Assembly (NCBI GenBank): GCA_030390025.1
Contig: CM059449.1
Span: forward strand, 30,690,001 to 30,754,000
Direction: 5' to 3'
DNA: 64,000 nt
Source: Squalus acanthias
Taxonomy: Eukaryota
Translations under genes and position numbers: made by a program
Notes under the pieces: generated by a model
What the model saw: the letters and a program-made list of their open reading frames with translations, nothing else
Told to the model about the DNA's origin: nothing
Database searches by the model: none
Shown here: positions 4,680-42,315 of the stretch, piece by piece
Position numbering within the stretch: position 1 is the first letter of the stretch
How the letters are laid out: every line of letters begins with the position of its first letter

Positions 4680-7040
4680 AGCCGTGGCTCAGTGGTAGCA
4701 CTCTCGCCTCTGAGTCAGAAGGTCGTGGGTTCAAGTCTCACCTCGGAGACTTCAGCACAGAATCTAGGCTGACACTTCAGTGCAGTACTGAGGGTCTGCT
4801 GCACCGTTGGCGGGCAGAAGGAGTGCTGCACTGTTGGAGGGCAGTACTAAGGAAATGCAGCACTGTCGGAGAAGCAGTACTGAGGGAGCCCTACGCTGTT
4901 GGAGAGGCAGTACTGAGGGAGCCCTGTACTGTCGGAAGGGCAGTAGTGAGGGAGTGCTGCACTGTCGGAGGGGCAGTACTGAGGGAGCCCTGTACTGTTA
5001 GAAGGGCAGTAGTGAGGGAGCCGTGCACTGTCGGAGGGGTGGTATTGAGGGAGCCCTGCACGGTTGGAGAGTTAGTATTGCAGGAGCACTGCACTGTCGG
5101 AGAAGCAGTACTGAGGGAGCCCTACAATGTCGGAGGGGCAGTACTGAGGGAGTGCTGCACTGTCGGAGAAGCAGTACTGAGGGAGCCCTGCACTGTCGGA
5201 AGGGTGGTAGTGAGGGTGTGAAGGAATAAGCCATATTCAGAAAAATACACCATTCTATGAAAGAATTCTGGCCTTATTAAAACATGACAAACTGGGTTTG
5301 GAAATCTAAAAACCTAAAAATGGAGAAGCTGTATTGTTAACAGCATTCAGGCTATTGAGATAAGATAAGTTGTTGACACTGAATCAATAACCTTATTGAA
5401 ACACGAGGTTGGAGGCTCCTGAAGTCTGAAGCTTTGGAAAGAACACAATGGTACACCCTGTTAAGGTGTTCTAAATTACACTTTGGAAAGAAACACATAA
5501 AATTAAGAAACATATGCCTTGGGCTTGGGACACCTGATGGAGAGACATAATTCTGCATTGCTACCAGCTGAAGTGACTGTAAGAATAGCAGGGGTCAGCA
5601 GAAAAATGACTAGAGATAATTAGCTTACATCTGCAGAAAACTTCAAAGGAAATATCACTGAAAAAGGAGATATATATTGAACTTTCAAATGGGATGATAG
5701 TCTCGCTGTAAAGGGGAAAAGCGATTCTCAGGCTTCAGAGGCAGCTCTGTAAGTCTACAACTCTTTGTACCTCGGGGATCAAGGTATTGTACTGTATTTG
5801 ATTTTGGTGGATATCCTGGAATAAAGACTGTAACTGTAAAAATGTAGCGAAGTTAAGTTCTGATAATAAGAATTGTAAGCTTTCTCTTTTTGGAACTGTT
5901 AATGTTGCGATTGAAACACCTACTGTAATTACATGTCGGTTCTTTAATAAATCTATGTATTTTTAGAATTGTCTCACATAATACTTCTGTATCAAACTTG
6001 CAAACTCAATCTCTGTACGCTCTTTGGTGAGGAGTTGCAGAATTCTGGGGGAGTTATCCGGACCCTCATAATGTCTGGAACGTCACAGTCTAGCTAAACT
6101 TATTAAAAGTGCTATCTGGAGGATGGTAACATCTTCAGGTTGTTCCTTTCCTTTAGGGAGAGATGGTCCGGACCTTTAGACCCAATTAAGCATCTTTAGG
6201 ATTCGGCTACCTCAAACTTTAGTTGAAAGTGAACGTCTGGGGAATACGCCTGATCCGGGGTAGCCCTAAAGGGGCTAGGACTAGTAATTATCCCTTCAAG
6301 GGAGCCCTGCACTGTCGGAGGGGTAGTATTGAGGGAGCACTGCACTGTTGGAGAGGCAGTACTGAGGGAGCCCTGCACTGTCAGAGGGGTAGTATTGAGG
6401 GAGCAATGCACTGTTGGAGAGGCAGTACTGAGGGAGCTCTGCACTGTCAGAGGGGTAGTATTGAGGGAGCGCTGCACTGTCGGAGGAGTAGTATTGAGGG
6501 AGCGCTGCACTGTCAGAGGGGTAGTATTGAGGGAGCACTGCACTGTTGGAGAGGCAGAACTGAGGGAGCCCTGCACTGTCGGAGGGGCAGTACTGAGGGA
6601 GCCCTGCACTGTCGGAGGGGCAGTACTGAGGGAGTGCTGCACTGTAGGAGAGGCAGTACTGAGGGAGTGCTGCACTATTGGATGGGCAGTACTGGGGGAG
6701 TGCTGCACTGTCGGAGGCGCCGTCTTTCGGATGAGACGTTAAACTGAGGTCCCGTCTGCCCTCTCAGGTGGACATAAAAGATCCCATGGCACTATTTCAA
6801 AGAAGAGCAGAGGAGTTCTCCCCAGTGTCCTGGCCAATATTTATCCCTCAATTAACATCAGTTAAAGCAGATTAACTGGTCATTATCATATTGCTGTTTG
6901 TGGGAGCTTGCTGTGCGCAAATTGGCTGCCGCGTATCCTACATTACAACAGTGACTGCACTTCAAACAGAACTTAATTGGCTGTAAAGCGTTTTGGGATG
7001 TCCTGAGGTCAGGAATGGCGCTGTATAAATTCATCTCTTT
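4680..7040 (+). mobile_element. Deu-type SINE with an internal 33 bp tandem expansion, interrupted by a solo LTR
   Basis: tRNA-like head 4681-4745 (TGGCTCAGTGG, GGTTCAAGTC); repeats 4790-5216 and 6299-6720; SINE body and tail 6720-7040. Confidence 0.85.
5217..6298. mobile_element. Solo LTR (1082 bp)
   Basis: Starts TGTGAAGG and ends CCTTCA (short inverted termini); 4 bp duplication AGGG at 5213-5216 and 6299-6302; AATAAA near 5820 and 5946; cleanly splits the 33 bp array. Confidence 0.8.
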
Positions 7041-7220
7041 GTTGACCCATTGCCAGCGAGAGTCAGTGCATTGAGAAGAGAATGGGAGGGGCGAAATCAG
7101 GAGCCGTATATATACCATTGAGATACAGAAGGTGTAAATAGGGGCGATGGTTAAGTGTTAATAAGGGGCTGGGCCTGAGTGTGAACCCCTGCTGTAAAAG
7201 GCGGACTGCAGACTCCACTC

Positions 7221-7299
7221 CCTGGTAACCAGTGACCAGAACAAGTCCTTTCAGTCTCACTGGATCTGGTTATCGGATCTGCTGCACCTGAGCACCAAT
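7221..7299 (+). promoter_or_regulatory. Putative proximal promoter elements of the class I gene (X-box-like, ISRE-like, CCAAT)
   Basis: CCTGGTAACCAGTGAC (7221-7236) resembles an RFX X1/X2 box; CTTTCAGTCTC (7248-7258) is ISRE-like; CCAAT at 7295-7299. All are 100-180 bp upstream of the ATG, but the spacing is not the canonical SXY module. Confidence 0.3.
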
Positions 7300-7400
7300 A
7301 AACAGCTTCAGCCAGAGTGGTGTTGAAAAGCACAAGAGATTAAGTTACTGTTCCAGCAGCTTCTCTCCTGGTTAATCAGTGCCCCGGGCGACTTTAGAAC

Positions 7401-7452
7401 ATGCTGCTTGTTACTTTACTGAACGTTTACTGTGTGCCCACAGTCTCCTCTG
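7401..7452 (+). CDS. MHC class I heavy chain, exon 1 (signal peptide MLLVTLLNVYCVPTVSS)
   Basis: ATG at 7401 (context AACATG), short hydrophobic leader ending VSS, donor G|GTAAG at 7453. Phase 1 joins exon 2 in frame (G+AT = Asp1). Confidence 0.85.
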
Positions 7453-7869
7453 GTAAGCAATTCAAACAGCTTATATCAGTGGGCAGTATTTCAGGGGACC
7501 CCGAGATTGACAGTATCGTAAGATAGTGTCGAGCTGTCCCTGGGCTTGGAGTATTGCAATGCCTTGGGTGTGTGAGCGATTCAGGGTAAGGATGATCCCT
7601 GCACTGGGGAGGGGTCGCTTGAGAATTTGTGTTACAGACATGTTGTAAGGCCGGGGGGAGGTGGGGGAGGTGTATTTCAATAGAAGGAAAAGCAGCAGGT
7701 TCTGTTATTGACGTGTGATCCTCCTCTCCAGATTTTGCTCACCTGCGCTCCTCCCAGTTGATGCTGAACACTCAGGTGGTGGAGGTGAAAATCTGATTCA
7801 ATATTACTGGACCACAAACATGTTTGAACCTTACAGATATTGTATTCTGGTCGATGTGTTCTTCCTCCT

Positions 7870-8310
7870 CCCTCACACCCCCATCCATTGTCCTTGCCGA
7901 ACCCCTTCGGCTCCTCCAGCTCCACACAACTGACTTTAAGGTTTATTTCTTCACCTTGAAAGCCCTCCCTGGCCTCCACCCTTCCCACCTCTGCAATCTC
8001 CTCCGGTCTCATGTCCCTACATGCCACTTCCACTCCTCCCACTCCAGCCTACATTTCCCCCTCCGCTGCCTCTGTACCACCATTGGTAGCCGCTCCTTCA
8101 GTCTCTCATGCCCCAGCCCTCCATAGCACTCTCCCTCAGCATGTCCACCTTCTCCCGTCCCTCCCTCCAGAAGGCTCCTGTAGCTCCTTCTGTCTGACTG
8201 TGTTATTGGCTCCGCTTAATGCTCCCTTCCGGCTCTCCCTCTTGCTCACTGCTCTGAGGCATCTCTCTGTACATGGGGAGTGCTTTAGTAATGTATGCTG
8301 CTGTACACAG
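7870..8310 (+). mobile_element. Old L2 LINE 3' fragment
   Basis: Translation DFKVYFFTLKALPGLHPSHLCNLL matches the L2 ORF2 C-terminal motif. Confidence 0.6.
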
Positions 8311-9746
8311 TCAAAGCATCTCATAGGAACAGGAGGAGGAGGCCATTCAGCCCCTCGAGCCTGACCGCTATTCAATTAGATCATGGCTGGTCTTTATCTT
8401 AACTCCATCTACCCATCTTCGTTCCATAACTCTCCATACCCTTGCCTAACAAAAATCTATCAATCTCAGTTTTTAAATGTTCAGTTGACCCCCAGCCTCA
8501 ACAACGTTTTAGGGGAGAGAGTTCCAGATTTCCACAAACCTTTGTGTGAAGAAGTGCTTCCTGACATCACCCCCGAATGGCCTGGCTCTAATTTGAAGGT
8601 TATGTCCCCTTGTTCTGAACTCCCCTCACCAGAGGAAATAGTTTCTCTCTATCCACCCTATCAACTCCTGTAATCATCTGAATGACAGCACCCCTTAATT
8701 ACTCTACTTGAGGGAATACAAACCTAGTCTAAGCAACCTGTCCTCATATTTGAACCCTTCCAGCCCCGGTATCAAACTACTTCAAATAGCGAATGATGTT
8801 TCCTACATTACGCCAGTGACTACTCTTCAAAAGTACTTCACTGGCTGTGAAGCTCTGGGACGTCCTGAGGTTTTGAAAGGCGCTGTATAATGTCAATTCT
8901 TTCCCAACCTTCTTGTGCTACTTCAGCAGGGTGACACTGAAGTGGAAGCTGATACGAACCCTGACCTCCGGTCCCACCTTCACCTCACAGAAACACCATG
9001 GACTTTGGCACTGTCCAATGTGCTGCTCGGGCCCAAGAATGACTTTTATATCTGAGCAAACACTGCCGGTTTATTATAGTCTCTGAGTTAGTCAAGGCCG
9101 AAGTGAACTCTGTGTGTCCGATTATGGGGGAGAGTTAGCTGCGACTCTTCAATACTTCAACTGGTGCCAGAGGCACAAATACTCCGTTACTGACTCACCA
9201 AACAATGAGAAGCGTTGATTCTCTTTACTTTACCAAACCCCTGATAGTTTGGATCCCTCTGTCAGATCCCCTCGACCTGCTCTGTTCCAGTGAAAAGAAT
9301 CCCGGTCTGTCTTCGTAACTCAAGCCGCTCACGCCTGGGGATCAGCCGAGCAAATCTCTTCCGCACCTTCTCCGTGACCTTGACATCCTTCTTTAAATAT
9401 GGTATCCAACATTGGACACTACATTCTAACTGTGATCTTTGGAATTCTCTACCTCAGAGGGCTATGGATGCTCAGTCGATGAGTATATTCAAGACTGAGA
9501 TCGATAGATTATTGGGCACTAAGGGAATCAAGTGATAGGACATTAAAGTGGAGTTGAGGTAGAAGACCAGCTATGATCTTATTGAACGGTGGAGCAGGCT
9601 CGAGGGGCCGTATGGCCTACTCATGCTCTTATTTCTTATGTTTTTATGTTCTAACGAGGTTTAGCATTAACCGGTGTTATTTCCACTTTGAGTTACTTTA
9701 CAATCGCCGGCATATTTGAGACTGGTATCTGTTTGTGATCCTGCAG

Positions 9747-10007
9747 ATTTTCACACTCTCGCATTTTACTACCTACTGAACCATGGCCGGGCCGAGCTGC
9801 CCGAGTACAGTTTGGTGGTGATGCTAGATGACTATCAGATAGCGTATTTCGACAGCACCCTGCCGCGGACTGTGCCCAGGCAGCAGTGGATGGCCGACTC
9901 CTTCCAGAGGGATCACTGGGACGCGATGACTATCACAATGGCAGGCTTCCATGGCCTCGTCAGAGGAAACGCTGAGATGTTTTACCGACAGCGCCATGGT
10001 GCTTCGA
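9747..10007 (+). CDS. MHC class I heavy chain, exon 2 (alpha1 domain)
   Basis: Acceptor CTGCAG at 9741-9746, donor GTAAGT at 10008, 261 nt, phase 1/1. Translation DFHTLAFYY..LPEYSLVVMLDDYQIAYFDS..PRQQWM..HWD matches class I alpha1 motifs (H3, DD-x-Q, FDS, PR-xx-W, WD). Confidence 0.95.
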
Positions 10008-10353
10008 GTAAGTGTCCTCACAGAGATGGTGCAGCTACCCTGTGGCAGTAGGAAGGAATTTGTGTCGATACGGAGCCTTATGCTGTCTCTCAGAAACGGC
10101 CCGAACCACTTCACACCCAATAACTGACTTGGAATTAGCTGGTCATTGTCGCTTTCTGAGAGCAGCATGGCAGCTATTTGGTGCACAGTAAATAGCAATG
10201 AGATGAGTGATTTGTTCATCTGCTGTTGCTGGTGTGCATTGAGGGATAAATGTTGGCCATGAAACTGGGATGAATCGCTGGTAGGTTTTATTAGTGTTTA
10301 ACTGAACAGACAGACGGGGCCTTGAATTAAGGTCGCATTTAAAAGACGGCATC

Positions 10354-12312
10354 TCCGACAGTGCAGCACTCCCTCAGTACTGCCCCTCCGACAGTGTAAA
10401 GCTCCTTCAGTACTGCCCCTCTGACAGTGCAGCATTCCCTCAGTACTGCCCCTCCGACAGTGCAGCACTCCCTCAGTACTGCCTCTCCGACAGTGTAAAG
10501 CTCCTTCAGTACTGCCCCTCTGACAGTGCAGCACTTCCTCAGTAGTGCCCCTCTGACACTATGGCACTCCCTCAGTACTGCCCCTCCGACAGTGCAACAC
10601 TCCCTCAGAACTGCCGCTTCGACAGTGCAACGCTCCCTCAGATCTGTCCCTCCAACAGAGCAGATCTCCTTCAGTACTGCCCCTTTGAGAGTGCAGCACT
10701 CCCTCAGTACTGCACCTTCGACAGTGCAGCACTCCCTCAGTACTGCCCCTCCGACAGTGCAACACTCCCTCAGTATTGCCCCGCCGACAGTGTAGAGCTC
10801 CTTCAGTTCTGCCCCTCTGACAGTGCAGCACTCCCTCAGTACTGCCCCTCGGACAGTGCAGCACTCCCTCAGTACTGCCCCTTCAACAGTGCAGCGCTCC
10901 CTCCGTACTGCCCCTCCGACAATGCAGCACTCCCTCAGTACTGCCCCCCCAACATTGCAGCGCTCCCTCAGTACCGCCGCTCCGACAGTGCAGCAGTCCC
11001 TCAGTACCACCCCTCCGACAGTGCAGCGCTCCCTCAGTACTGCCCCTCCGACAGTTCAGCTCTCCCTCAGTACTGCCCCTCCGACAGTGCAGCACTCCCT
11101 CAGTACTGCCCCTCCGACAGTGCAGCACTCCCTCAGTACCGCCCCTCGACAGTGCAGCACTCCCTCAGTACTGCCCCTCTGACAGTGCAGCATTCCCTCA
11201 GTACTGCCCCTCCGACAGTGCAGCACTCCCTCAGTACTGCCCCTCCGACAGTGTAACGCTCCTTCAGTACTGCCCCTCTGACAGTGCAGCACTTCCTCAG
11301 TAGTGCCCCTCTGACACTATGGCACTCCCTCAGTACTGCCCCTCCGACAGTGCAACGCTCCCTCAGAACTGCCGCTTCGACAGTGCAACGCTCCCTCAGA
11401 TCTGTCCCTCCAACAGAGCAGATCTCCTTCAGTACTGCCCCTTTGAGAGTGCAGCACTCCCTCAGTACTGCACCTTCGACAGTGCAGCACTCCCTCTGTA
11501 CTGCCCCTCCGACAGTGCAACACTCCCTCAGTATTGCCCCTCCGACAGTGTAGAGCTCCTTCAGTTCTGCCCCTCTGACAGTGCAGCACTCCCTCAGTAC
11601 TGCCCCTCGGACAGTGCAGCACTCCCTCAGTACTGCCCCTTCAACAGTGCAGCGCTCCCTCCGTACTGCCCCTCCGACAATGCAGCACTCCCTCAGTACT
11701 GCCCCCCCAACATTGCAGCGCTCCCTCAGTACCGCCGCTCCGACAGTGCAGCAGTCCCTCAGTACCACCCCTCCGACAGTGCAGCGCTCCCTCAGTACTG
11801 CCCCTCCGACAGTTCAGCTCTCCCTCAGTACTGCCCCTCCGACAGTGCAGCACTCCCTCAGTACTGCCCCTCCGACAGTGCAGCACTCCCTCAGTACCGC
11901 CCCTCGACAGTGCAGCACTCCCTCAGTACTGCCACTCCGACAGTGCAGCGCTCCCTCAGTACTGCCCCTCCGACAGTGCAGCTCTCCCTCAGTACTGCCC
12001 CTCCGACAGTGCAGCACTCCCTCTGTACTGCCCGTCCGACAGTGCAGCACTCCCTCAGTACTGCCCCTCCGACAGTGCAGCACTCCCTCAGTACCGCCCC
12101 TCCGACAGTGCAGCGCTCCCTCAGTACTGCCCCTCCGACAGTGCAGCACTCCCTCAGTACCGCCCCTCCGACAGTGCAGTGCTCCCTCAGTACTGCGCCT
12201 CCGACAGTGCAGCATTCCCTCAGCATTGCCCCTCCGAGAGTGCAGCACTCCCCCAGTACTGCCCCTCCGACGGTGCAGCGCTCCCTCAGTACTGCCCCTC
12301 CTACAGTGCAGT
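10354..12312 (-). repeat. 33 bp minisatellite (ACAGTGCAGCACTCCCTCAGTACTGCCCCTCCG)n, SINE-derived, in intron 2
   Basis: Direct tandem repeat contiguous with a - strand SINE body (~10090-10353); internal 758 bp duplication (10526 vs 11284). Confidence 0.95.
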
Positions 12313-12794
12313 CAATTTAGGAAAACAAATTCCTCTGTGTCCTCCACAGAGAATTGAGGAAGGTGCAGGAGACATCAGTGGCTGTCATCACTGGTGCCCG
12401 TTAACCCCATACACCCTCTATAACTCGAGATATCGGCCAGCTCCCTTTCCAACACAGGGGAGGTACCAGAGGACTGGAGGACAGCTAACGTAGTACCATT
12501 ATTCAAGAAGTGTAGTAGGGATAAACCAGGGAATTACTGGCCAGTGAGCCTAACATCAGTGGTAGGGAAATTATTGGAAAAAATTCTGAAGGACAGAATT
12601 AGCCTCCACTTGGTGAGGCAAGGATTAATCAAGGATAGTCAGCATGGCTTTGTCAGGGGGAGATCATGGCCAATCAATTTGACTGAATTTTTCGAGGGGC
12701 TGACTAGGTGAGTGGATGAGGGTAGTGCAGTTGGTGTAGTCTACATGGACTTCAGTAAGGCTTTTGACAAAGGCATGGGAGACTGGTCAAGAAG

Positions 12795-15700
12795 CATAGC
12801 ATAGAGCATAGAAGATAGGAGCAGGAGTAGGCCATTCGGCCCCTCGAGCCTGCTCCGCCATTTAATGAGATCATGGCTGATCATCCAAATTCAGTATCCT
12901 GTTCCTGCTTTCTCCCCATATCCCTTTATCCCTTTAGCCTTAAGAAATATATCTATCTCCTTCTTGAATATATTTAATGAATTGGCCTCAACTGCCTTCT
13001 GTGGTAGAGAATTCCACAGGTTCACCACTCTCTGGGTGAAGAAATTCCTCCTCATCTCAGTCCTAAATGGCTTACCCCTTATCCTTAGACTGTGACCTCT
13101 GGTTCTGGACTCCCCCGCCATTGGGAACATCCTTCCTGCATCTAGTCTATCTAATCCTGTTACAATTTTATAAGTTTCAATGAGATCCCCTCTCATTCTT
13201 CTAAACTCTAGCGAATATTAGCCTAATCGACCCAATCTCTTTTCATACGTCATTCTTGCCATCCCAGGTATCAGTCTGGTGAATCTTCGCTGCACTCCCT
13301 CCATGGCAAAAACATCCTTCCTCAGATAAGGCGACCAAAACTGCACACAATACTCAAGGTGTGGTCTCACCAAGGCCTTGTACAACTGCAGCAAGACATC
13401 CTTGCTCCTGTACTCGAATCCTCTCGCTATAAAGGCCAACATACCATTTGCCTTCTTAACCGCCTGCTGCACCTGCATGCTTACCTTCAGCGACTGGTGC
13501 ACAAGGACTCCCAGATCTTGTTGCACTTCCCCTTTTCCCAATCTATTGCTGTTCAGATAATAATCTGTCTTCCTGTTTTTGCCACCAAAGTGGATAACCT
13601 CGCATTTATCCACATTATACTGCATCTGCCATGCATCTGCCCAATCACCCAACCTGTCCAAATCATACTGGAGTTTCTCTGCATCCTCCTCACAGCACAC
13701 ACGCCCACCCAGCTTTGTGTCGTCTGCAAACTTAGAGATATTACATCTAGTTCCCTCGTCCAGATCATTAATATATATTGTGAATAGCTGGGGTCCAAGG
13801 ACCGATCCCTGCGGTACCCCACTAGTCACTGCCTGCCACTCGGAAAAAGACCCGTTTATTCCAACTCTTTGCTTCCTGTCTGCCAACCAGTTCTCTATCC
13901 AAATCAGTACCTTACCCACAATCCCATGTGCTTTAACTTTGCACGCTAATCTCTTATGCGGGACCTTATCGAAAGCCTTTTGAAAGTCCAACTACACCAC
14001 ATCCACTGGTTCGCCCTTATCTATTCTACCAGTTACATCCTCAAAAAATTCAAGTAGATTAGTCAAGCATGATTTACCTTTTGTAAATCCATGTTGACTT
14101 TGTCTGATCCTGTCACTGTTTTCCAAGTGTTCTGCTATTACATCTTTTATAATGGACTCTAGCATTTTGCCCACTACCGATGTCAGGCTTACCTTTTTTT
14201 CTCTACCACCTTTTTTAATAGTGGGATTACATTAGCTACCCTCCAATCCATGGGAACTGTTCCAGAGTCTATAGAATTTTGAAAGATGACCAGCAATGCA
14301 TCTACTATTTCTAGGGCCACTTCCTTAAGTACCCTAGGATGTAGATTATCAGGCCCTGGGGATTTATCAGCCTTCAATCCCATCAATTTCCCTAACACCA
14401 TTTCCCTACAAATACTGATTTCATTCAATTCCTCCCTCTCATTAGACCATATGTTCCCCAACATCTCTGGGAGTTTATTTGTGTCCTCCTTTGTGAAGAC
14501 AGAACCAAAGTATGTATTTAATTGGTCTGCCATTTCTTTGTTCCCCATTATAAATTCCCCTGATTCTGACTGCAAGGGACCTATGCTTGACTTCACCAAT
14601 CTTTTTCTCTTCACATTTCTATAGAAGCTTTTACAGTCAGTTTTTATGTTTCCTGCAAGCTTACTCTCATATTCTATTTTCCCCCTCTTAATTAATCCCT
14701 TTGTCCTCCTTTGCTGAATCCTAAACTGCTCCCAATCCTCAGGTTTGCTGCTTTTTCTGGCCAATTTATATGTCCTCTCCTTGGATCTTATGCTATCCCT
14801 AATTTCCCTTGTTAGCCATGGTTGAGTCACCTTTTTTGTTTTATTTTTATGCCAAACAGGGATGAACAAATTCTGTAGTTCATCCATGTGATCTTTAAAT
14901 GTTTGCCATTGCCTATCCACCGTCAACCCTTTAAGTAACGCTCCCCAATCCATCCTAGCCAACTCGCGCCTCATACCATCATAGTTTCCTTTATTTAAAT
15001 TCAGGACCCAAGGGGGAAAAATTCAGTTGGTTGCACCTCCCGTTAGCGCCTTAAGAGGGCGCTAATGGGGCGCAAAGCAACTAGCACCTGGGCGCGGTGA
15101 TGTTTGCGCCGCTCGTGAAATTAACTAGACATTTTGCGGCAGTGCTAAACAGTACCGCCACGATCTCCTGTGCCGGCAGATCGTGACGTCAGTCGAGTGC
15201 GCAATGCCCCGGTAGCGCACTGGAGTGGATATTGAGTGGCGCCCCCTGCCTTACCACCTGCCACTAGCAACGACAGGTTGAGGGGAGCGTTTTGCAGTCA
15301 GGAAGGGACTGGGGGAGCGCTATTTAAAGGCTACAGCTTCCTGCCTTTTTTTGTTGGTGCCATTTTTGAACTACGCATTCTGAGAGAGAGAGGGAGAGAC
15401 TTCTGGAGAGATTCAACGTTGTGTGAAGGAGTTTTGGGTAATGAGCAGCACTTTGCAGGTTCATTTTGATTTGCCCTTCCTTGTATCGATTTAAAAGAGA
15501 CTGTGGGGGCTGCCTTCTGAGCTCTTTCCCTGGGCCTCTCCATTGTTCTTTCCAGCAGATTTGATGTACAGGTCTCTCCAGGCTGAGATTCAAGGCTGCA
15601 ATGAGCAGGATGTGGATGGAGAGCAAGATCAACCCTCCCCTTTAAGAACTGGGCGATGCCTTTGTGTCTGTGTTCCATTGCTGACTGACATTACATGAGC

Positions 15701-16142
15701 TTCGCCAGCGCTCTGAGGTAGCGCCTCGCTCCTCGGCCTTTGCGCCTTAAGACAGGTGTGAAGCGCCTGATTTAGCGCTCCAATCACCTCCAGGGGCGAT
15801 AAAAGTCAAGTTTGCAGTCGGATGCGATAATTAGCGCCAGGCGCTAATCTTTGCGCCCGGCCGATAATTGCGCCCCAAATGGGGCGATACTGAATTTCTC
15901 CCCCATAGCCTTCAGGCTTTTTTTATAACACTCTTAGTCCTTTTAGAATTACTATTTACTGTAGCCCTGTTTGATTTACACCCTTGATTTCTCTGCCTTC
16001 CACTTTTGTGTTTCTCCTTCCTGTCTTTTGCTTCTATCCTTGCTTCCCTTTGCTTTGTTTCTCTGCTCAGGTTCCCAACCCCCTGCCATTTTAGTTTAAA
16101 CCCTCCCCAACAGCACTAGCAAACACTGCCCCCAGGACATCG
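12795..16142 (-). mobile_element. Younger CR1 (family A) nested antisense, carrying a MITE and an internal deletion
   Basis: ORFs 12891-14974 are nearly identical to the CR1 at 23121-27280; CTATG-type tail at the left end; 15905-16142 matches the ORF1/ORF2 junction of the longer copy. Confidence 0.92.
15012..15904. mobile_element. Non-autonomous TIR DNA transposon (MITE, PIF/Harbinger-like)
   Basis: Termini GGGGGAAAAATTCAG ... CTGAATTTCTCCCCC, CpG-rich subtermini, no coding capacity; homologous to 22588-27632 in the opposite orientation. Confidence 0.8.
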
Positions 16143-18034
16143 GTAAGAGCCCATGGGATCCAGGGCAATTTGGCACATTGGATCCAAAATTGGCTTAGTG
16201 GCAGGAGGCAGAGGGTGATGGTCGAAGGTTGTTTTTGTGACTGGAAGCCTGTGTCCAGTGGTGTACCGCAGGGATCGGTGTTGGGTCCTTTGCTGTTTGT
16301 AGTGTACATTAATGATTTAGATATGAATGTAGGAGGTATGATCAGTAAGTTCGCAGATGACACGAAAATTGGTGGAGTGGTAAATAGCGAGGAGGGAAGC
16401 CTCAGGCTACAGGATGATATAGACGGGTTGGTCAGATGGGCAGAACAGTGGCAAATGGAATTTAACCCTGAAAAGTGTGAGGTGATGCATTTTGGGAGGA
16501 CTAACAAGGCAAGGGAATACACAATGAATGGTAGGACCCTAGGAAGGACAGAGGATCAGAGGGACCTTGGTGTGCATGTACATAGATCCCTGAAGGCAGC
16601 AGGACAGGTAGATAAGGTGGTTAAAAAGGCATATGGGATACTTGCCTTCATTAGCCGAGGCATAGAATATAAGAGCAGGGATGTTATGATGGAGCTGTAC
16701 AAAATGCTAGATAGGCCACAGCTGGAATACTGTGTGCAGTTCTGGTCGCCACACTATAGGAAGGATGTGATTGCATTGGAGAGGGTGCAGAGGAGATTCA
16801 CCAGGATGTTACCTGGGCTGGAGTGTTTCAGCTATGAAGAGAGACTGGACAGGCTGGGGTTGTTTTCCTTAGAGCAGAGAAGGCTGAGGGGGGACCTGAT
16901 TGAGGTGTACAAAATTATGAGGGGCATAGATAGGGTAGATAGAAAGGAACCTTTCCCCTTAGTAGAGGGGTCAATAACCAGGGGGCATAGTTTCAAGGTA
17001 AGGAGCAGGAGGTTTAGAGGGGATTTGAGGAAAAGCTTTTTCACTCAGAGGGTGGTTGGAATCTGGAACTCACTGCCTGAAAGGGTGGTAGAGGCAGGAG
17101 CACCTCACAACATTCAAGAAGCATTTAGATGAGCACTTGAAACACCATAGCATACAAGGCTACGGACCAAGTGCTGGAAAATGGGATTAGAATAGACAGA
17201 GCTTGATGGCCGGCGCAGACACGATGGGCCGAAGGGCCTCTTTTTGTGCTGTATAACTCTATGCCTCTATGACTTGCAGCCAATCCATACTCACTGCACA
17301 TCCTGGCAACTTGTCACGAGATCCATGACTCTCTGTGAAAAGATGTTCCTCCTGGCATCTGACCTACTGCTGAGGTTAAAGTTCAGCAGAGCGGGTCATG
17401 AATGGAACCTCAACGTTACACAACTGCTTCACAACACAGGAACTGGAGGGGGCCATTCAGCCCCTCGAGCCTGCTCCGCCATTCCCCTAGATCATGGCTG
17501 ATCTGTACCTCAACACCATTTCCCCGCCTTTGCTCCATATCCCCCGATACCCTTACCTAACACAAATCGATCTATCTCAGTCTTGAAAGCTCCAATTGAC
17601 CCCCAGCATCCACAGAGTTTTGGGGAAGAGTTTTCCAGATTTCTACCACCCTTGATGTGAAAAAGTGCTTCCTGATTTCACTCCTGGATGGCCAAGCTCT
17701 AACTTTAAGATAATGCCACCCTGTTCTGGATTCCCCCACCAGAGGATATTGTTTCTTTGAAACTCCCTCCCTAATCTTCTCCGCCTCTCTACCTCTCTCT
17801 CTCCTCCTTTAAGACGTTCCTGAAAACCATCCTCTTTGACCAAGCTTTTGGTCACCTGCCCTAATATCTCCTTATGTAGCTCAGTGTCAAATTTTGTTTG
17901 GTAATCGCTCCTGTGAAGCACCTTGGGACTTTTTAACGACGTTAAAGGCGTTGTATAAATACAAGTTGTTGTATCGACCTGGTCGAATCCTTTTCACATT
18001 GTAAATTGATTTGAGTATTAATTTTTCCACCAAG

Positions 18035-18310
18035 GTGTTTTCTTTGTCCAGGGAATGTGTGGCTGTGAAGTGAGCGGTGATAATTCCACGGACGGGTTTA
18101 TAAAGTTGGGATATGAGCGGGAGGATGCGTATGTTTTTGACAAGGACAGAACGCGTTGGATCGCGCTGAATCCAGAGTTCCAGGCGTTTGCGGATCGGTG
18201 GAATGCCAACACCTTCATGAACAAGTACTTCAAGGCTCTGTTGGAGAAGGACTGCGTGAAATGGCTGCTGATATACCTTGAGTGTGGGCGAGGAGCACTA
18301 GAGAGGATAG
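18035..18310 (+). CDS. MHC class I heavy chain, exon 3 (alpha2 domain)
   Basis: Acceptor CAAG at 18031-18034 gives phase 1 and 276 nt; donor GTACGT at 18311. Translation SVFFVQGMCGCE..GYERED..W..RW..LEKDCVKWLLIYLECG contains the C101-C164 pair, Q96, D122, W133, W147, W167 and Y171. Confidence 0.93.
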
Positions 18311-19184
18311 GTACGTTGTGGGAACGGCGACTGGGGGGGGGGGGGAGCGCTCCCGATGGCTCAGGTGGTACAGACCAGGTTTTTAGTCCCGGGTCTGTCC
18401 TGAGCCAGCTGTTCTTGGACAGGGTGGCAGTAAAGTGGAGCTGCAATTGGCCTGAATACCCCTTGCTTCGGGGCTGGCGGCGGGGGGGGGGGTGGGGGTA
18501 GGAATTCGGGCAGGTGACCTAAATCCGATGACTTACCCAGTCACCTTGGCTGGAAAGTGCCTGCACGTTGACATCGAGTGAGGATAGGATTAGAGTAAGC
18601 TGTGATACCCCCTTGGTTGAATAGCTTCCTCACTGTGTAGGCTCACCCGTGAACACTGGGTACTTGTGTGCGGTACAAGAGTGCGGCTTTACACAGAATT
18701 ACGTCGAATGTGCAGCGCGGGAAGAGGCTATTCGGCTCAACTGGTCTACGCCAGAGATTATGCTTCACACGAGCCTCCTCCCACCCCAATTCAGCGTATC
18801 CTTCCATTCCTTTCTCCCTCATGTGTTTATCCAGCTTCCCCTTAAAAGTATCTCTGTTATTTGCCTCAACCACTCCCTGTGGTAGCGAGTTCCACATTCT
18901 CACCACTCTCTGGGTAAAGAAGTTTCTCCTGAATTCCTTATTGGATTTATTAGTGACTATCTTATATTCATGGCCCCTAGTTCTGGTCTTGCCCACTCGT
19001 GGAAACATCTTCTCTACGTCTACCCTATCAAACCCTTTCATAATTTTAACGACCTCTATTAGGTCACCCCTCAGCCCTCTCTTTCCTAGTGCTGTATCTC
19101 AGCATCGGTCACCTGTCTCCAGCGGAGAAAGTTGATGGTGGTTGGGGAAAAGATAAAAGAACAAATAGAGAACTTCTCACGAAT

Positions 19185-20079
19185 ACAAAAAGTAAAATAC
19201 TGCGGATGCTGTAAATCTGAAATAAAAAGAGAAAAGGCTGGAAGTACTCAGCAGCATCTGTGGAGAGAGAAACAGAGTTAACGGCCCTGAAATTCGCCTC
19301 TCCGGCTTGCCGCGGGGGTAAGGATCGCGCGCGCACTTACCTACCGCGCCTGCCATTGACCTCTGGGCCCACAGGAACTTCAGCTCCTGGGACTCCTGCA
19401 GCTGCCGGCGCGCAGTGCTTGCGTGTTCCAGGGGCGCAGTTAGTGCGATGCGTCCCCTGGGATCACGTGGGCCATGGAGAGCCAATGGCAGCAGACCATC
19501 TTTCATTCATAGATTTGACAGGAAGACCTGTCAAATCTATGAATTGAAATCGGCCCCAAAAGAACAGCTAAACTTAAAATAATTTTTTTTAAAACATCAC
19601 ATTTATAAAATAACTATAAGTTAAATAAATTAACTACTTGAAACAAAACTTTAAATGTTTGAAAAAATTAAAATACTTTTTAACAGTGCTAAAAATAAAC
19701 TTAACTTTCTTTAAAGTATCTAAAAAAGATAAACCTGTTGAAAAAATTTTAAATTATAATTAATTAACCACTTACCTTGTTGAAAACGGGTCCTGTGCCT
19801 CCTTTTTAAAAGCGTAGGTTCTTCAATACTTACCCTCCCGGAGAAACCTGAAAAAAACCCTAAGTTTGCTGCGTGCGCCCAGCCTCTCCCGCTCACGCGG
19901 TTCACCTATGAACCGCCCCCTTCACCAGACCGGAAGTTCCGGTTTCCCGCGCATGCGCAGTGCATGCAGGAAACCGGCACTTCAGGACGCCTTACGGGTG
20001 AGTACACAGTGTGTACTCACCTGGGAAGGGCTGAATTTTTGGCCCAACGTTTCAGGTCGCTGACCTTTCATCAGAACTC
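19185..20079 (-). mobile_element. Penelope-type terminal repeat fragment with a minimal hammerhead ribozyme, split by a MITE
   Basis: Rejoining 20046-20079 with 19275-19279 gives, on the - strand, GAGTT-CTGATGA-A-AGGTC-AGC-GACCT-GAAA-CG-TT-AACTC: hammerhead core with stem I GAGTT/AACTC and stem II AGGTC/GACCT. Confidence 0.7.
19283..20045. mobile_element. MITE (PIF/Harbinger-like), second family
   Basis: Imperfect TIRs GGCCCTGAAATTCGCC ... GGGCTGAATTTTTGGCCC; 3 bp duplication AAC (19280-19282 and 20046-20048); GC-rich arms and a very AT-rich core. Confidence 0.8.
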
Positions 20080-20115
20080 GTCACTGACTTTAGTCTTTGT
20101 TTCACTCTCTCTCAG

Positions 20116-20388
20116 CCGCCCCTGAGGTGCTAATTGGGGATCGGAGCGACAGGGAGCGAGGGCTGAGGCTCTCCTGCCTCGTGACGGGCTTTTACCCACG
20201 GCCTATCGACGTGACCTGGCTGAGAAACGGCGAGGAGGTCCCCGACGTCGAATCCAGCGACCTGCTGCCCAACCAGGATGCGACGTTTCGGGTGATGAAA
20301 ACGATTGAGCTGAGCGGAGACGACGGGGAGAGATACTCCTGTCACATCGAGCACGCCAGCCTCCTGCTGGGGCTCGACGTACCCTGGG
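20116..20388 (+). CDS. MHC class I heavy chain, exon 4 (alpha3, C1-set Ig domain)
   Basis: Acceptor TCTCTCTCAG ending 20115, donor GTAAGT at 20389, 273 nt, phase 1/1. Motifs LSCLVTGFYPRPIDVTWLRNG, LLPNQDATF and YSCHIEHASL. Confidence 0.96.
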
Positions 20389-20524
20389 GTAAGTGGCAGG
20401 TTGGAGAGGGCCGCATGCTTCCCCGCGCCCCCCCCGTGCCTCGGGGTGCTCACTCAGTCCGCCCACTCGGAGCGGGAAGTCACAGGGTCCGAGGTAGCTG
20501 GTCTCACCTGTCAGGGTCACACAT

Positions 20525-22275
20525 GCTGCCATTATTTTTTATAAAAGGCGAGAGATTAGCAAATGTTGGGATTCAGAGGGATTTGGGGGTCCTTGTACAT
20601 GAATCGCAGAAAGTTAGCATGCAGGTATAGCAAGCAATTAGGAAGGCAAATGGTATGTTGGAATTATTGCAAGGGGATTGGAGTATAAGAAATCTTGCTG
20701 CAATTATATAGGGCTTTGTTGAGACCACACCTGGAGTAACATAGAAACATAGAAGATAGGAGCAGGAGTAGGCCATTCAGCCCCTTGAGCCTGCTCCGCC
20801 ATTCAATGAGATCATGGTTGATCATCCAAATTCAGTACCCTGTCCCTGCCTTTTCCCCATATCCCTTGATCCCTTTAGCCTTAAGAAATATATCTAACTC
20901 CTTTTTGAATATATTTAATGAATTGGCCTCCACTGCCTTCTGTGGTAGAGAATTCTACAGGTTCACCACTCTCTGGGTGAAGAAATTCCTCCTCATCTCT
21001 GTCCTAAATGGCTTACCCCTTATCCTTAGACTGTGACCACTGGTTCTGGACTCCCCGACCATCGGGAACATCCTTCCTGCATCTAGTCTGTCTAGTCCTG
21101 TTAGAATGTTATAAGTTTCAATGAGATCCCCTCTCATTCTTCTAAACTCCAGCGAGTATAAGCCCAATCGACTCAATCTCTCCTCATACGTCATTCCTGC
21201 CATCCCACGTATCAGCCTGGCGAATCTTCGCTGCACTCCCTCCACGGCAAGAACATCCTTCCTCAGATAAGGCGACCAAAACTGCACACAATACTCAAGG
21301 TGTGGTCTCACCAAGGCCCTGTACAACTGCAGCAAGACATCCTTGTTCCTGTATTCGAACCCTCTCGTTACGAAGGCCAACATACCATTTGCCTTCTTAA
21401 CTGCCTGCTGCACCTGCATGCTTACCTTCAGCGACTGGTGCACAAGGACACCCAGGTCTCGTTGCACTTCCCCTTCTCCCAATCTATTGCCATTCAGATA
21501 ATAATCTGCCTTCCCGTTTTTGACACCAAAGTGGATAACCTCGCATTTATCCACATTATAATGCATCTGCCATGATTCTGCCCAATCACCCAACCTGTCC
21601 AAATCATACTGGAGTTTTTCGGCATCCTCCTCACAGCACACACGCCCACCCAGCTTTGTGTCATCTGCAAACTTGGAGATATTACATCTAGTTCCATCGT
21701 CTAGATCATTAATATATATTGTGTACTGTGTACAGTTTTGGTTCCCTTACCTGAGAAGGATATACTTGCCTGAGAGGGGGTGCAACGAAGGTTCACCAGA
21801 TTGATTCCTGTGATGAGAGGGTTGTCCTATGAGAAGAGATTGTATAGAATGGGCCTATACTCTCTGGAGTTTAGAAGAATGAGAGGTGATCTCATTGAAA
21901 CGTATAAAATTCTTAGAGGCCTTCACAGGGTAGATGCTGAGAAGTTGTTTCCCCTGGCTGGAGAGTCTAGAACTAGGGGTCACGGTCTCAGGATAAGGGG
22001 GTCGGCCATTTAGGACTGAGATGAGGAGAAGTTTCTTCACTCAGAGGGTTGTGAATCTTTGGAATTCTCTGCCCCAGAGGGTTGTGGAGGCTCAGTCGTT
22101 GAGTATATTCAAAACTGAGATCGGTAGATTTTTGGGCACTAAGGAATCAAGGGATATGGCGATCGGGCGGGAAAGTGCAGTTGATGTAAAAGTTCAGCCA
22201 TGATCTCATTGAATGGCGGAGCAGGCTCGAGGGGCCGTATGGCCTACTCCTGCTCCGATTTCTTATGTTCTTATG
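20525..22275 (+). mobile_element. CR1 3' part, split by an antisense CR1
   Basis: CCTGGAGTA (20738) continues as GTACTGTGTACAG (21723); QRRFTRLIP..RVVNLWNSLPQ and TTCTTATG tail. Confidence 0.88.
20739..21722 (-). mobile_element. 5'-truncated CR1 family A, nested antisense
   Basis: ORF 20955-21641 encodes the RT C-terminus; (TTTCTATG) tail at the left end; GTA on both flanks. Confidence 0.92.
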
Positions 22276-23120: not shown

Positions 23121-26100
23121 ATATCATTTAACTGTAGAGTAATTAGTGGGATTGATTTGATTTAATTTAATTTGAATTAATTAAAGGGTAAGTCATGGCA
23201 GGAGAGCTCGGCCCCGTGGTATGCTCCTCCTGCGCTATTTGGGAAATCGGGGACACTTCCTGTGCCCCTGACAACCATGTGTGCAGGAAGTGTATCCAGC
23301 TACAGCTACTGGCAGACCGCATTGCGGCGCTGGAGCTGCGATTGGATACATACTGGACCATTCGCGATGCTGAGGACGTCGTGGATATCACGTTTGAGCA
23401 GTTGGTCACACCGCAGGCAAAGGATGCACAGGCAGAAAGGGAATGGGTGACCAACAGACAGAGTAGTAGGCGCAGGCAGGTAGTGCAGGAGTCCCCTGTG
23501 GACATCCCCCTCTTAAACAGATATACCACTTATACCACTTTGAATACTGTTGGGGGGGATGGCTTATCAGAGGAAGGCAGCAGCAGACAACTTCCTGGCA
23601 CCAGGGGTGGCTCTGTTGCACGGGACGGGAGGAAAAAGAGTGGAAGAGCTATAGTGATAGGGGATTCTATTGTAAGTGGAATAGATAGGCGTTTCTGCGG
23701 CCGCAAACGAGACTCCAGGATGGTGTGTTGCTTCCCTGGTGCAAGGGTCAAGGATGTCTCAGAGCGGCTGCAGAACATTTTGGAAGGGGAGGGTGAACAG
23801 CCAGTTGTCATGGTGCATATAGGTACCAACGATATAGGTAAAAAAGGGGTTGAGGTCCTAAAAGCTGAATATAGGGAGTTAGGAGGTAAATTAAAAAATA
23901 GGACCTCAAAGGTAGTAATCTCAGGATTGCTACCAGTGCCACGTGCTAGTCAGAGTAGAAATAGAAGGATATTTCAGATGAATACGTGGTGAGAGGAATG
24001 GTGCAAGGGGGAGGGATTCAAATTCCTGGGACATTGGAACCAGTTCTGGGGGAGGTGGGACCAGTACAAACCGGACGGATTGTACCTGGGCAGGTCATGG
24101 ACCGATGTCCTAGGGGGAGTGTTTGCTAGTGCTCTGGGGGAGGGTTTAAACTAAAATGGCAGGGGGTTGGGAACCTGAGCAGGGAGACAGAGGAAAGGGA
24201 AACAAGGATAAAAGCAAAAGATAGGAAGGAGAAAAACAAAAGTGGCAGTGAGAGAAATCAACGGTTTAAATCAAACATGGCTACAGTAAATAATAATTCT
24301 GATAGGTCTAAGAGCGTTCAAAAAACAAGCCTGAAGGCTTTGTGTCTTAATGCAAGGAGCATTCGGAATAAGGTGGATGAATTAGCTGCGCAAATAGAGG
24401 TAAACGAATATGATTTGATTGGGATTACGGAAACATGGCTCCAGGGTGGCCAAGGCTGGGAACTCAACATCCAGGGGTATTCAATATTCAGGAAAGATAG
24501 GCAAAAAGGAAAGGGAGGTGGCGTAGCATTGCTGGTTAAAGAGGGGATTAATACAATTGTAAGGAAGGATATTAGCTCTGATGATGTGGAATCTGTATGG
24601 GTAGAACTGAGAAATACCAAGGAGTAGAAAACGTTTGTGGGAGTGGTATATAGACCTTCAAACAGTAATGCTGAGGTTGGGGATGGCATTAAAAGGGAAA
24701 TTAGAGAAGCGTGCAATAAGGGCACAGCAGTCATCATGGGTGACTTTAATCTACATATAGATTGGGCTAACCAAATTAGTAACGATACTGTGGAGGAGGA
24801 ATTCCTGGAGTGTTTACGGGATGGTTTCCTGGACCAATATGTCGAGGAACCAACCAGAGATCAGGCCATCTTAGTCTGGGTATTATGTAATGAGAAAGGA
24901 TTAATTAGCAATCTCGTTGTACGAGGCCCCTTGGGTCGGAGCGATCATAATATGATAGAATTCTTCATTAAGATGGAGAGTGAAGTAGTTGACTCAGAGA
25001 CTAGGGTCCGGAATTTAAATAAAGGAAACTACGATGGTATGAGGAGCGAGTTGGGTAGGATTGATTGGGGAATGTCACTCAAAGGGTTGACGGTGGATAG
25101 GCAATGTCAAACATTTAAAGACCGCATTCATGAACTACAGAATTTGTTCATCCCAGTTTGGCATAAGAATAAAACAAGAAAGGTGACTCAACCGTGGCTA
25201 ACAAGCGAAATTAGGGATAGCATAAGATCCAACGAGAGGACATATAAATTGGCCAGAAAAAGCAGTAAACCTGAGGATTGGGAGCAGTTTAGGATTCAAC
25301 AAGGGAGGACAAAGGGATTAATTAAGAAGGGGAAATAGAATATGAGAGGAAGCTTTCAGGGAACATAAAAACTGACTGTAAAAGCTTTTATAGATATGTG
25401 AAGAGAAAAAGATTGGTGAAGTCAAGCGTAGGTCCCTTGCAGTCAGAATCAGGGAAACTTATAATGGGGAACAAAGAAATGGCAGACCAATTAAATACAT
25501 ATTTTGGTTCTGTCTTCACAAAGGAGGACACAAATAACCTCCCAGAAATGTTGGGGAACATAGGGTCTGATGAAAGGGAGGAACTGAAAGAAATCAGTAT
25601 TTGTAGGGGAATGGTGTTAGGGAAATTGGCGGGATTGAAGGCCGATAAATCCCCAGGGCCTGATAATCTACATCCTAGGGTACTTAAGGAAGTGGCCCTA
25701 GAAATAGTAGATGCATTGCTGATCATCTTCCAACATTCGATGGAATCTGGAACAATACCCATGGATTGGAGGGTAGCTAATGTTACCCCACTATTCAAAA
25801 ATGATGGTAGAGAGAAAATAGGGAATTACAGACCGGTAAGCCTGACATTGGTAGTGGGGAAAATGCTAGAGTCCATTATAAAAGGTGTAATAACAGAGCA
25901 CTTGGAAAACAGTGACAGGATCGGACAAAGTCAACATGGATTTACAAAAGGTAAATCGTGCTTGACTAATCTACTGGAATTTTTTGAGGATGTAACTGGT
26001 AAAATAGATAAGGGAGAACCAGTGGATGTGGTGTATTTGGACTTTCAAAAGGCTTTCGATAAGGTCCCGCATAAGAGATTAGCGTGTAAAGTTAAGGCAC

Positions 26101-27280
26101 ATGGGATTGGGGGCAAGGTATTGACTTGGATAGAGAACTGGTTGGCAGACAGAAAGCAAAGAGTTGGAATAAACGGATCTTTTTCCGAGTGGCAGGCAGT
26201 GACTAGTGGGGTACCGCAGGGATCGGTCCTTGGACCCCAGCTATTCACAATATATATTAATGATCTAGACAAGGGAACTTGATGTAATATCTCCAAGTTT
26301 GCAGACGACACAAAGCTGGGTGGGCGTGTGTGCTGTGAGGAGGATGCCGAGAAACTCCAGGATGATTTGGACAGGTTGGGTGATTGGGCAGAAGCATGGC
26401 AGATGCAATATAACGTGGATAAATGCGAGGTTATCCACTTTGGTGTCAAAAACAGGAAGGCAGATTATTATCTGAATGGCAATAGATTGGGAGAAGGGGA
26501 AGTGCAACGAGACCTGGGTGTCCTTGTGCACCAGTCGCTGAAGGTAAGCATGCAGGTGCAGCAGGCGGTTAAGAAGGCAAATGGTATGTTGGCCTTCGTA
26601 GCGAGAGGGTTTGAGTACAGGAGCAAGGATGTCTTGCTGCAGTTGTACAGGGCCTTGGTGAGACCACATCTTGAGTATTGTGTGCAATTTTGGTCACCTT
26701 ATCTGAGGAAGGAGGTTCTTGCCATGGAAGGAGTTCAGCGAAGATTCACCAGACTGATACCTGGGATGGCAGGAATGACGTATGAGGAGAGATTGGGTCG
26801 ATTGGGCTTATAATCGCTGGAGTTTAGAAGAATGAGAGGGGATCTCATTGAAACTTGTAAAATTCTGACAGGACTGGACAGACTAGATGCAGGAAGGATG
26901 TTCCCGATGGCGGGGTAGTCCAGAACCAGGGGTCACAGTCTAAGGATAAGGGTGAGTTGGTCCAACGCCGGCATCTCCACATGATAAGGATAAGGGGTAA
27001 GCCATTTAGGACAGAAATGAGGAGGAATTTCTTCACCCAGAGAGTGGTGAACCTGTGGAATTCTCTACCACAGAAGGCAGTAGAGGCCAATTCATTAATA
27101 TATTCAAGAAGGAGTTGGATATATTTCTTAAGGCTAAAGGGATCAAGGGATATGGGGAGAAAGCAGGGACAGAGTTCTGAATTTGGATGATCAGCGATGA
27201 TCTCATTAAATGGCGGAGCGGGCTCGAGGGGCGAAATGGCCTAGTCCTGCTCCTATCGTCTATGTTTCTATGTTTCTATG
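23121..27280 (+). mobile_element. Near full-length but defective CR1 LINE (family A): ORF1 zinc finger + SGNH esterase, ORF2 APE endonuclease + RT
   Basis: ORF1 from 23195 (CSSC..CRKC, coiled coil, IVIGDSIV, HIGTND). ORF2 motifs [28 protein letters not shown] and [10 protein letters not shown]. Stops at 23990, 24625, 26280 and 26811, frameshift near 25335; (TTTCTATG)n tail; TGGT on both flanks. Confidence 0.95.
26953..26984 (+). mobile_element. 32 nt tail-only footprint of the Penelope-like element
   Basis: TGAGTTGGTCCAACGCCGGCATCTCCACATGA between two copies of TAAGGATAAGGG (26941-26952 and 26985-26996); absent from sister CR1 copies (e.g. ~31912); 21/23 match to the reverse complement of 38198-38220. 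Confidence 0.85.
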
Positions 27281-38283: not shown

Positions 38284-38321
38284 TCACAAGCTTTCGGAAC
38301 TATCGCTCCTTCCTCAGGTGA
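38284..38321 (-). ncRNA. Mirror copy of the minimal hammerhead ribozyme
   Basis: Exact reverse complement of 38939-38976. Confidence 0.75.
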
Positions 38322-38938
38322 AGTAAATTGGATACAGAATCGTCAGAGCATATATAGATGGAAAAAAAAGCATGTGTACTTTACAATTGCAGACCAATAA
38401 ATTAAATCATCCTGACTATCTGCCGAGGTGTGATAAAGTTAATTAAGTCAGCCAGGAAGGTACCACATCAAAAGACATAGCAAGATACAACTGAGACAAT
38501 GAGGTGAAGTCGCAGGGGTTCTAACGTGTCAAAAGCTGCCGTCTGTATGTAAAACGAAAAGCTTTAAAAAAAAAAATTTACTTTTTTACTGGGAAAATTT
38601 TTACTTTTTTACTGGGAATCACATCTTGTTCACAGATGTGATTCCCAGTAAAAAAGTAAAAATTTTCCCAGTAAAAAAGTAAATTTTTTTTTTTAAAGCT
38701 TTTCGTTTTACATACAGACGGCAGCTTTTGACACGTTAGAACCCCTGCGACTTCACCTCATTGTCTCAGTTGTATCTTGCTATGTCTTTTGATGTGGTAC
38801 CTTCCTGGCTGACTTAATTAACTTTATCACACCTCGGCAGATAGTCAGGATGATTTAATTTATTGGTCTGCAATTGTAAAGTACACATGCTTTTTTTTCC
38901 ATCTATATATGCTCTGACGATTCTGTATCCAATTTACT

Positions 38939-38976
38939 TCACCTGAGGAAGGAGCGATAGTTCCGAAAGCTTGTGA
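38939..38976 (+). ncRNA. Minimal type I hammerhead ribozyme motif
   Basis: TCAC-CTGAGGA-A-GGAGC-GATA-GTTCC-GAAA-GC-TT-GTGA: CUGANGA and GAAA core, stem I TCAC/GTGA, stem II GGAGC/GTTCC, palindromic AAGCTT in place of stem III; predicted cut after 38972. Confidence 0.75.
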
Positions 38977-42115: not shown

Positions 42116-42315
42116 NNNNNNNNNNNNNNNNNNNNNNNNNNNNNNNNNNNNNNNNNNNNNNNNNNNNNNNNNNNNNNNNNNNNNNNNNNNNNNNNNNNNN
42201 NNNNNNNNNNNNNNNNNNNNNNNNNNNNNNNNNNNNNNNNNNNNNNNNNNNNNNNNNNNNNNNNNNNNNNNNNNNNNNNNNNNNNNNNNNNNNNNNNNNN
42301 NNNNNNNNNNNNNNN
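42116..42315. other. Assembly gap (200 N)
   Basis: Run of exactly 200 N, i.e. a fixed-size scaffold join of unknown true length. Confidence 0.99.

Follow-up and report, generated by a model that had tools for sequence, protein, structure and literature searches.

A nonclassical MHC class I gene of Squalus acanthias from a sister lineage of UGA, with a candidate lipid-binding groove

A 64,000-nucleotide stretch of the Squalus acanthias genome, positions 30,690,001 to 30,754,000 of contig CM059449.1 (hereafter the window), contains at 7401..20388 a gene for a nonclassical major histocompatibility complex (MHC) class I heavy chain that belongs to a sister lineage of UGA. With a probability of roughly 0.58, its product binds lipids and displays them to immune receptors on the cell surface. 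Of this reading, the sequence analysis below establishes the exon set, the lineage, the disappearance of the peptide anchors, the apolar character of the groove residues and the location in the class Ib cluster.

Exon structure

The exons of the gene and one repeat array between them are as follows.

7401..7452, plus strand: exon 1, leader peptide, with ATG and GT donor; 89% match to the start of the sawshark ortholog over 19 residues
9747..10007, plus strand: exon 2, alpha1 domain, with F7, H59, M63, M67, F70, L73, N77, F81 and Q84, without the N86 glycan site
10353..12311, no strand: 33-base tandem array in intron 2, found with Tandem Repeats Finder
18035..18310, plus strand: exon 3, alpha2 domain, with F93, G97, C99, C101-C164, G117, A123, F143, R146, W147, L159 and Y171
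20116..20388, plus strand: exon 4, alpha3 immunoglobulin C1 domain, with an intact donor (GTAAGT) directly after it

The four exons (leader, alpha1, alpha2 and alpha3) splice to 287 stop-free codons, and the three introns (2294, 8027 and 1805 bases) are all phase-1 GT-AG introns, which bears out the open frame and intact splice sites described in an earlier note on this stretch. Pfam MHC_I was found on exon 3 (E 1.1e-14) and, under the curated cut-off, on exon 2, and C1-set was found on exon 4 (E 3.3e-19). The top PDB match of exon 2 is 9CH4, the structure of UGA (E 2.5e-24), and exon 3 carries an NST glycan site at 107. A leader, an alpha1, an alpha2 with C101-C164 and a C1-type alpha3, encoded by separate phase-1 exons, make up the plan of an MHC class I heavy chain.

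The earlier note had called the gene intact; this holds for the ectodomain exons, which are complete and in frame, but not for the whole gene, as the transmembrane exon was not found. It had also read intact exons amid transposon-loaded introns as a sign of selection. The repeats are real, the remainder of intron 2 holding long interspersed nuclear element (LINE) fragments and reverse-transcriptase-like frames, but such evidence of selection is weak, and the conservation of the orthologs appears to be better evidence. A promoter scan of 7041-7400 gave no interferon-stimulated response element and no kB match, with one CCAAT at 7295. A search for RNA records with exon 3 listed none. Four expression runs compared with positions 7000-21000 were swamped by repeats, and no predicted splice junction was among the 15 of 496 joints listed, a result that speaks neither for nor against transcription.

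Orthologs and phylogeny

Database searches returned orthologs in 17 species (11 sharks and 6 rays), whose NCBI names are only 'MHC class I-related' or 'hypothetical'. Identity of 14 orthologs to the window gene is 65-87% in alpha1, 72-84% in alpha2 and 60-88% in alpha3; the corresponding values between the window gene and UGA are 44-52%, 34-42% and 38-55%. The best PDB match of alpha1 and of the whole ectodomain is 9CH4, whose title names the shark nonclassical class I UGA. Within the dogfish genome, each domain has one full match, namely itself, as for a single-copy gene. The next matches, about 20 in number, are spread over 32.7-38.4 Mb of the same contig and over unplaced contigs; they are true UGA, since a search with one of them returned UGA orthologs.

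A tree of the joined alpha1-3 domains was built from 24 rows (the window gene, 8 orthologs, 9 UGA and 6 other class I genes of this genome). The window gene and the 8 orthologs formed one clade (100/100), UGA formed another (100/99), and the two were sisters (100/99). The sister relation was also recovered in the single-domain trees of alpha1 (100/98) and alpha2 (93/80). In the joined tree, the lineage excludes the UEA-like and UCA genes of this genome, and a UDA-like alpha3 (L115) branches apart from it in the alpha3 tree. Forcing the window gene into UGA was rejected by the approximately unbiased (AU) test (p-AU 0.0004), and true UGA genes stand apart from it in this genome and in the 11 other species that hold both; an ortholog of UGA in the strict sense was therefore rejected. 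A classical UAA gene was likewise rejected, the gene lying outside UAA/UBA in the trees and having lost the peptide anchors. The lineage, left undecided in the earlier note, is thus by sequence a separate sister of UGA, and the gene groups apart from UAA-, UBA-, UEA- and UCA-like genes, in support of the nonclassical molecule with an apolar groove proposed there. As both clades contain sharks and rays, the duplication predates the shark/ray split, which took place about 300 million years ago.

A PF00129 search of this genome surfaced no UFA or UDA alpha1-2 exon, which does not show their absence. An exon from a neighbouring gene family in this genome is identical to the UCA alpha2 published for the spiny dogfish. 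In the sawshark, a further copy of the ortholog lacks half of alpha2, and Heptranchias has 11 near-identical proteins. The latter differ at only 6 ectodomain sites, a variation that looks, from the sequences, as low as in a non-polymorphic gene.

The gene might also simply be UGA in the wide sense of the group that named it, and so be already covered by their work; judged from the sequences, their wide-sense UGA may include it, which we consider rather unlikely to be the whole explanation. The chimaera 'UGA' of supplemental file 10 of PMC10751288 (file 10) is about as close to this gene as to nurse shark UGA, with by-eye identities of 21 and 22 in alpha1 and 28 and 27 in alpha2, and its alpha3 is nearer this gene (about 45 versus 37). 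The sawfish gene that bears the ortholog's NCBI name is, in addition, marked 'MHC-Ib' in the group's table. However, both elasmobranch UGA queries of file 10 fall in the other clade, the file lists no query of this lineage, both genes are present in 11 other species and in this genome, and identity between the two is only 34-55% per domain. A search of the literature revealed no name for this lineage, which is conserved across sharks and rays and apparently unnamed; the primary UFA/UGA paper and the 2021 thesis by Almeida lay outside its reach.

Peptide anchors and groove residues

Residues were numbered by placing exons 2 and 3 by eye, gapless, on nurse shark UGA, which is aligned to HLA-A2 in file 10 of PMC10751288. 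All 17 residues called in the earlier note (F7, H59, M63, M67, F70, L73, F81, Q84, L116, A123, F143, R146, W147, M152, F156, L159 and Y171) proved right. Among the peptide anchors Y7, Y59, Y/R84, T143, K146, W147, Y159 and Y171, only W147 and Y171 are retained. F143 is private to this gene, with L in 13 of 13 orthologs.

Groove hydropathy was calculated as the mean Kyte-Doolittle value over 43 positions that we take, from HLA structures, to line the groove. It is 0.80 for the window gene and 0.81-1.26 for 13 orthologs, compared with 0.11-0.62 for 12 UGA. Three UAA-like exon pairs gave -0.30 to 0.29, and the values of two UEA-like pairs were 0.09 and 0.25; in four of the five the exons come from different copies. 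By this measure of the sequence, the groove is more apolar than that of UGA. The window gene has 19-23 of the 43 groove residues in common with each UGA, the agreement elsewhere in alpha1-2 being 36-41%. Within the lineage 22 of 43 groove sites are invariant versus 51 of 134 others, a weak difference between related sequences (one-sided p 0.043).

The lineage is marked by F7, H59, M or V67, N77, C99, F93, G117, a lost N86 glycan site and an invariant site at N107. UGA, its sister from the same class Ib cluster and its best fold match (nurse shark, PDB 9CH4), has in common with it G69, F70, G97, M152, Y155, F156, L159, L160 and D163, and both have lost T143 and Y159. The two differ at F7, H59, M/V67, N77, C99 and W167, where UGA has mostly Y, Y, mostly E/Q, Q, F and mostly L, and at F93, G117 and D122 (H, A and Y in UGA). 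Their glycan sites also differ (107 versus 86 in UGA), as do their copy numbers in this genome (single versus about 20 matches), and the transmembrane segment of the orthologs is unrelated to that of UGA. On the face towards beta2-microglobulin (beta2m), Q96 and D122 are kept; F93, G117, E119 and R120 differ from the usual residues.

Comparison with other class I molecules

UFA (PDB 8GM8), which reportedly binds lipid in a CD1-like way, has an apolar groove and the class Ib cluster in common with the lineage. Its identity to the catshark ortholog across alpha1-2 is 29% (Z 20.2), compared with 65-87% within the lineage, and in file 10 of PMC10751288 it is without the W147 that the lineage keeps. 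The groove make-up is consistent, at sequence level, with lipid binding of the UGA/UFA type. Classical UAA (PDB 6LUP) and UBA, UCA, UDA and UEA have the class I fold, exon plan and MHC linkage in common with the lineage, but it lies outside their clades (for UDA on alpha3 only) and has lost the peptide anchors. UDA keeps Y7, Y59, K146 and Y159 in file 10 of PMC10751288; the lineage does not.

The predicted way of working resembles that of CD1 (CD1a, CD1d and chicken CD1). Where CD1b has L66, F70, Y73, F77 and F84 (CD1 numbering) in file 10, the lineage is apolar. Identity to CD1 is 14-19% over alpha1-2, and W147, W167 and Y171 are kept in the lineage.

MR1 is the source of the orthologs' NCBI label and gives the best alpha2 score; the DHW motif is in common, and identity is about 31%. 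In MR1, K43 together with R9/R94 serves the Schiff-base pocket. These residues are T, Y and G here (K43 read from the alignment of the sawshark ortholog), so the pocket is lacking, and an MR1 ortholog was rejected on K43 and R94. The earlier note's comparison with CD1/MR1 as presenters of non-peptide ligands therefore loses its MR1 part at K43; its lipid part gains indirect support from UGA, the nearest molecule by sequence, tree and fold.

Fold comparison

An AlphaFold model of alpha1-2 of the catshark ortholog (predicted local distance difference test, pLDDT, 88) was used, that of the whole sawshark ortholog being poor (pLDDT 65). UGA was its best fold match (Z 23.7, root-mean-square deviation 2.3 A over 178 residues), followed by FcRn (Z 22.1-22.5), chicken YF1 (22.0), MR1 (21.9) and HFE (21.4). 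The top ESM Atlas clusters were CD1-named (0.96) and zinc-alpha2-glycoprotein, for ortholog and UGA alike, in a comparison that had no negative control.

Predicted mode of action

The favoured reading is that of a lipid presenter. The heavy chain would pair with beta2m, and its groove would load lipid in place of TAP-delivered peptide. The acyl chains may rest on a floor of G97, C99, I114 and L116, beneath M63, M67, F70, F81, M152, F156 and L159, and the head group could be held or framed by the conserved polar end residues H59, D163 and Y171 together with N77, R146, N150 and Y155. Lipid presentation would have been inherited from the ancestor common with UGA.

The YxxPhi tail motif, present in CD1b, c and d, was found in 0 of 20 ortholog models versus 6 of 10 UGA models, two further ortholog models and one UGA model having been dropped for want of a readable tail. 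CD1a is also without YxxPhi and stays at the surface and in early endosomes. Since the motif is absent from the ortholog tails and present in most UGA tails, the present molecule would, like CD1a, remain at the surface or in early endosomes, and UGA would sample late endosomes, as CD1d. The tails of some orthologs are lengthened by short Q/R/E/T-rich repeats.

Several points weigh against this reading. The lipid binding of UGA rests on a PDB title and on section 2.1 of the review PMC12562908, which states CD1d-like lipids on the basis of a personal communication. The tails were read from predicted gene models. The trees contain UDA as alpha3 only and are without UFA, CD1, MR1 and chimaera genes, and the alpha3 tree leaves the sister relation to UGA unresolved. 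Peptide-binding fish and bird class I reach Z 21.4, with FcRn, YF1 and MR1 within about 1, and CD1d scores lower (Z 19.7); backbone shape does not sort ligand types. For the alpha2 exon, MR1 gives a better score (62 bits) than UGA does (52 bits). In a beta2m-contact loop, E119 and R120 of the window gene stand where most orthologs carry D and G, and this copy is without a found transmembrane exon. Finally, the bulky apolar residues could close the groove.

If they do, the groove would be filled by the protein's own side chains, and the protein would work without a ligand, as a receptor or transporter in the manner of FcRn or HFE. FcRn (Z 22.1-22.5) and HFE (21.4) do follow UGA among the fold matches, the groove-facing side chains include many that are large and apolar, and across the lineage F and G replace H93 and A117 on the beta2m face. 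We regard a closed groove as improbable, as small floor residues (invariant G97 and C99, A or V at 26, A123) leave room, the groove agrees with that of UGA at about half of its residues, and Z differences of about 1 amount to ties.

The ligand might instead be a lipopeptide or a small hydrophobic metabolite, as in chicken YF1 or MR1, rather than a two-chain lipid. R146, W147 and Y171 are present, H59 aligns with the H of the MR1 DHW motif, alpha2 is best on MR1, YF1 with an N-acyl glycine reaches Z 22.0, and, speculatively, a covalent bond to the ligand could form at C99, an invariant free cysteine. Such a ligand seems quite unlikely given the changes of MR1 K43 to T and R94 to G and the loss of Y7, Y59, Y84, T143 and Y159.

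Position in the MHC class Ib cluster

Gly-X-Y exons of a fibrillar collagen occupy 30.85-30.94 Mb of the minus strand, starting about 140 kb past exon 4, and are by synteny those of COL11A2, which PMC10751288 maps to an end of the class Ib cluster that also holds UDA, UEA and UFA. This places the gene at 7401..20388 within the MHC class Ib cluster. A single 530-kb contig of Heptranchias carries both the ortholog and UGA, with consecutive accessions. The sawfish table of PMC10751288 gives a gene with the ortholog's NCBI name, a correspondence by gene name and not by gene id, directly before three with the usual name of UGA; these genes are about 1.2 Mb from COL11A2 and all marked only 'MHC-Ib'.

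The missing transmembrane exon

The orthologs carry a transmembrane segment and a tail in their predicted gene models. In this genome, neither tblastn nor a profile search found a transmembrane exon in window positions 20389-64000 and the next 200 kb (243 kb downstream), nor was one found genome-wide with the sawshark or white shark ortholog segment as query. The search method works, the same kind of genome-wide search with the UGA transmembrane exon having given 21 matches. One UGA copy of this genome has its transmembrane exon about 3 kb past alpha3; here, exon 4 is followed by 21.7 kb of repeats and then by an assembly gap, as listed below.

23192-26813, no strand: near-complete LINE, its endonuclease- and reverse-transcriptase-like frames fragmented, named by eye, downstream of exon 4
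33397-42087, no strand: satellite of 47/96/143-base units, adjoining the assembly gap
42116..42315, no strand: assembly gap of 200 N between two unrelated satellites
42316-63999, no strand: satellite with a 22-base unit, about 1000 copies in the window, adjoining the assembly gap

UAA-, UBA-, UEA- and UCA-like genes of this genome sit on unplaced contigs, so that the MHC is fragmented in this assembly. An assembly gap quite probably explains the absence of the exon, and this one is a likely place for it.

The lineage may, on the other hand, be functional elsewhere while in this copy the membrane anchor is really gone, the copy being secreted or starting to decay. This would account for a negative search over 243 kb and genome-wide with a working control, for 21.7 kb of repeats without the exon that lies about 3 kb past alpha3 in the UGA copy, and for the private changes G120R and D119E. 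It is nevertheless unlikely, because the frame is open with good splice sites, the end branch is short (0.081 versus 0.093 for sawshark), and the seven private changes at conserved sites fall within the range of 2-13 for 11 full-length orthologs, a count that excludes two orthologs truncated at the start. In addition, the gap lies downstream in a fragmented MHC, and this gene is the only copy found. By its end branch and private-change count, the gene shows no decay.

Other features of the region

Exons for SRCR domains (a DMBT1/CD163-like gene) lie at 30.61-30.65 Mb on the minus strand, 40-80 kb upstream of the window. Two retroviral env-like frames were also found upstream of the window.

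L125:6069-6941, minus strand, and L128:7809-8342, plus strand: env-like frames, Pfam TLV_coat (E 2.5e-16 and 3.1e-10)

UGA is expanded in this genome, with about 20 matches per exon and 21 transmembrane-exon matches, which are matches and not copy numbers, as some may be haplotypes; PMC12562908, in contrast, calls UGA single- or low-copy. A second set of UGA-derived alpha1 exons occurs among the UGA copies, most with a stop near the 3' end, and is by its sequence a co-amplified pseudogene. The C1-set exons on contigs C3718 and C176 resemble the 'UHA' alpha3 query of file 10 and are perhaps W-category genes.

Significance

How lipid presentation arose is an open question. To our knowledge, bony fish and amphibians have no CD1, and the proposal of UFA and UGA as the shark counterparts of CD1 is very recent. 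Tentatively, the present gene may represent a third, unnamed CD1-like lineage of sharks and rays whose separation from UGA preceded the shark/ray split, and possibly also that of the chimaeras, with a division between surface and endosomal presentation like that of CD1a and CD1d. C99 may hold the ligand, and the MR1-like alpha2 may keep ancestral non-peptide features. The 9CH4 structure offers a ready template and protocol for testing the lineage. If the favoured reading is true, a second conserved and more apolar UGA paralog with a different tail would mean that lipid presentation was already specialised in early jawed vertebrates.

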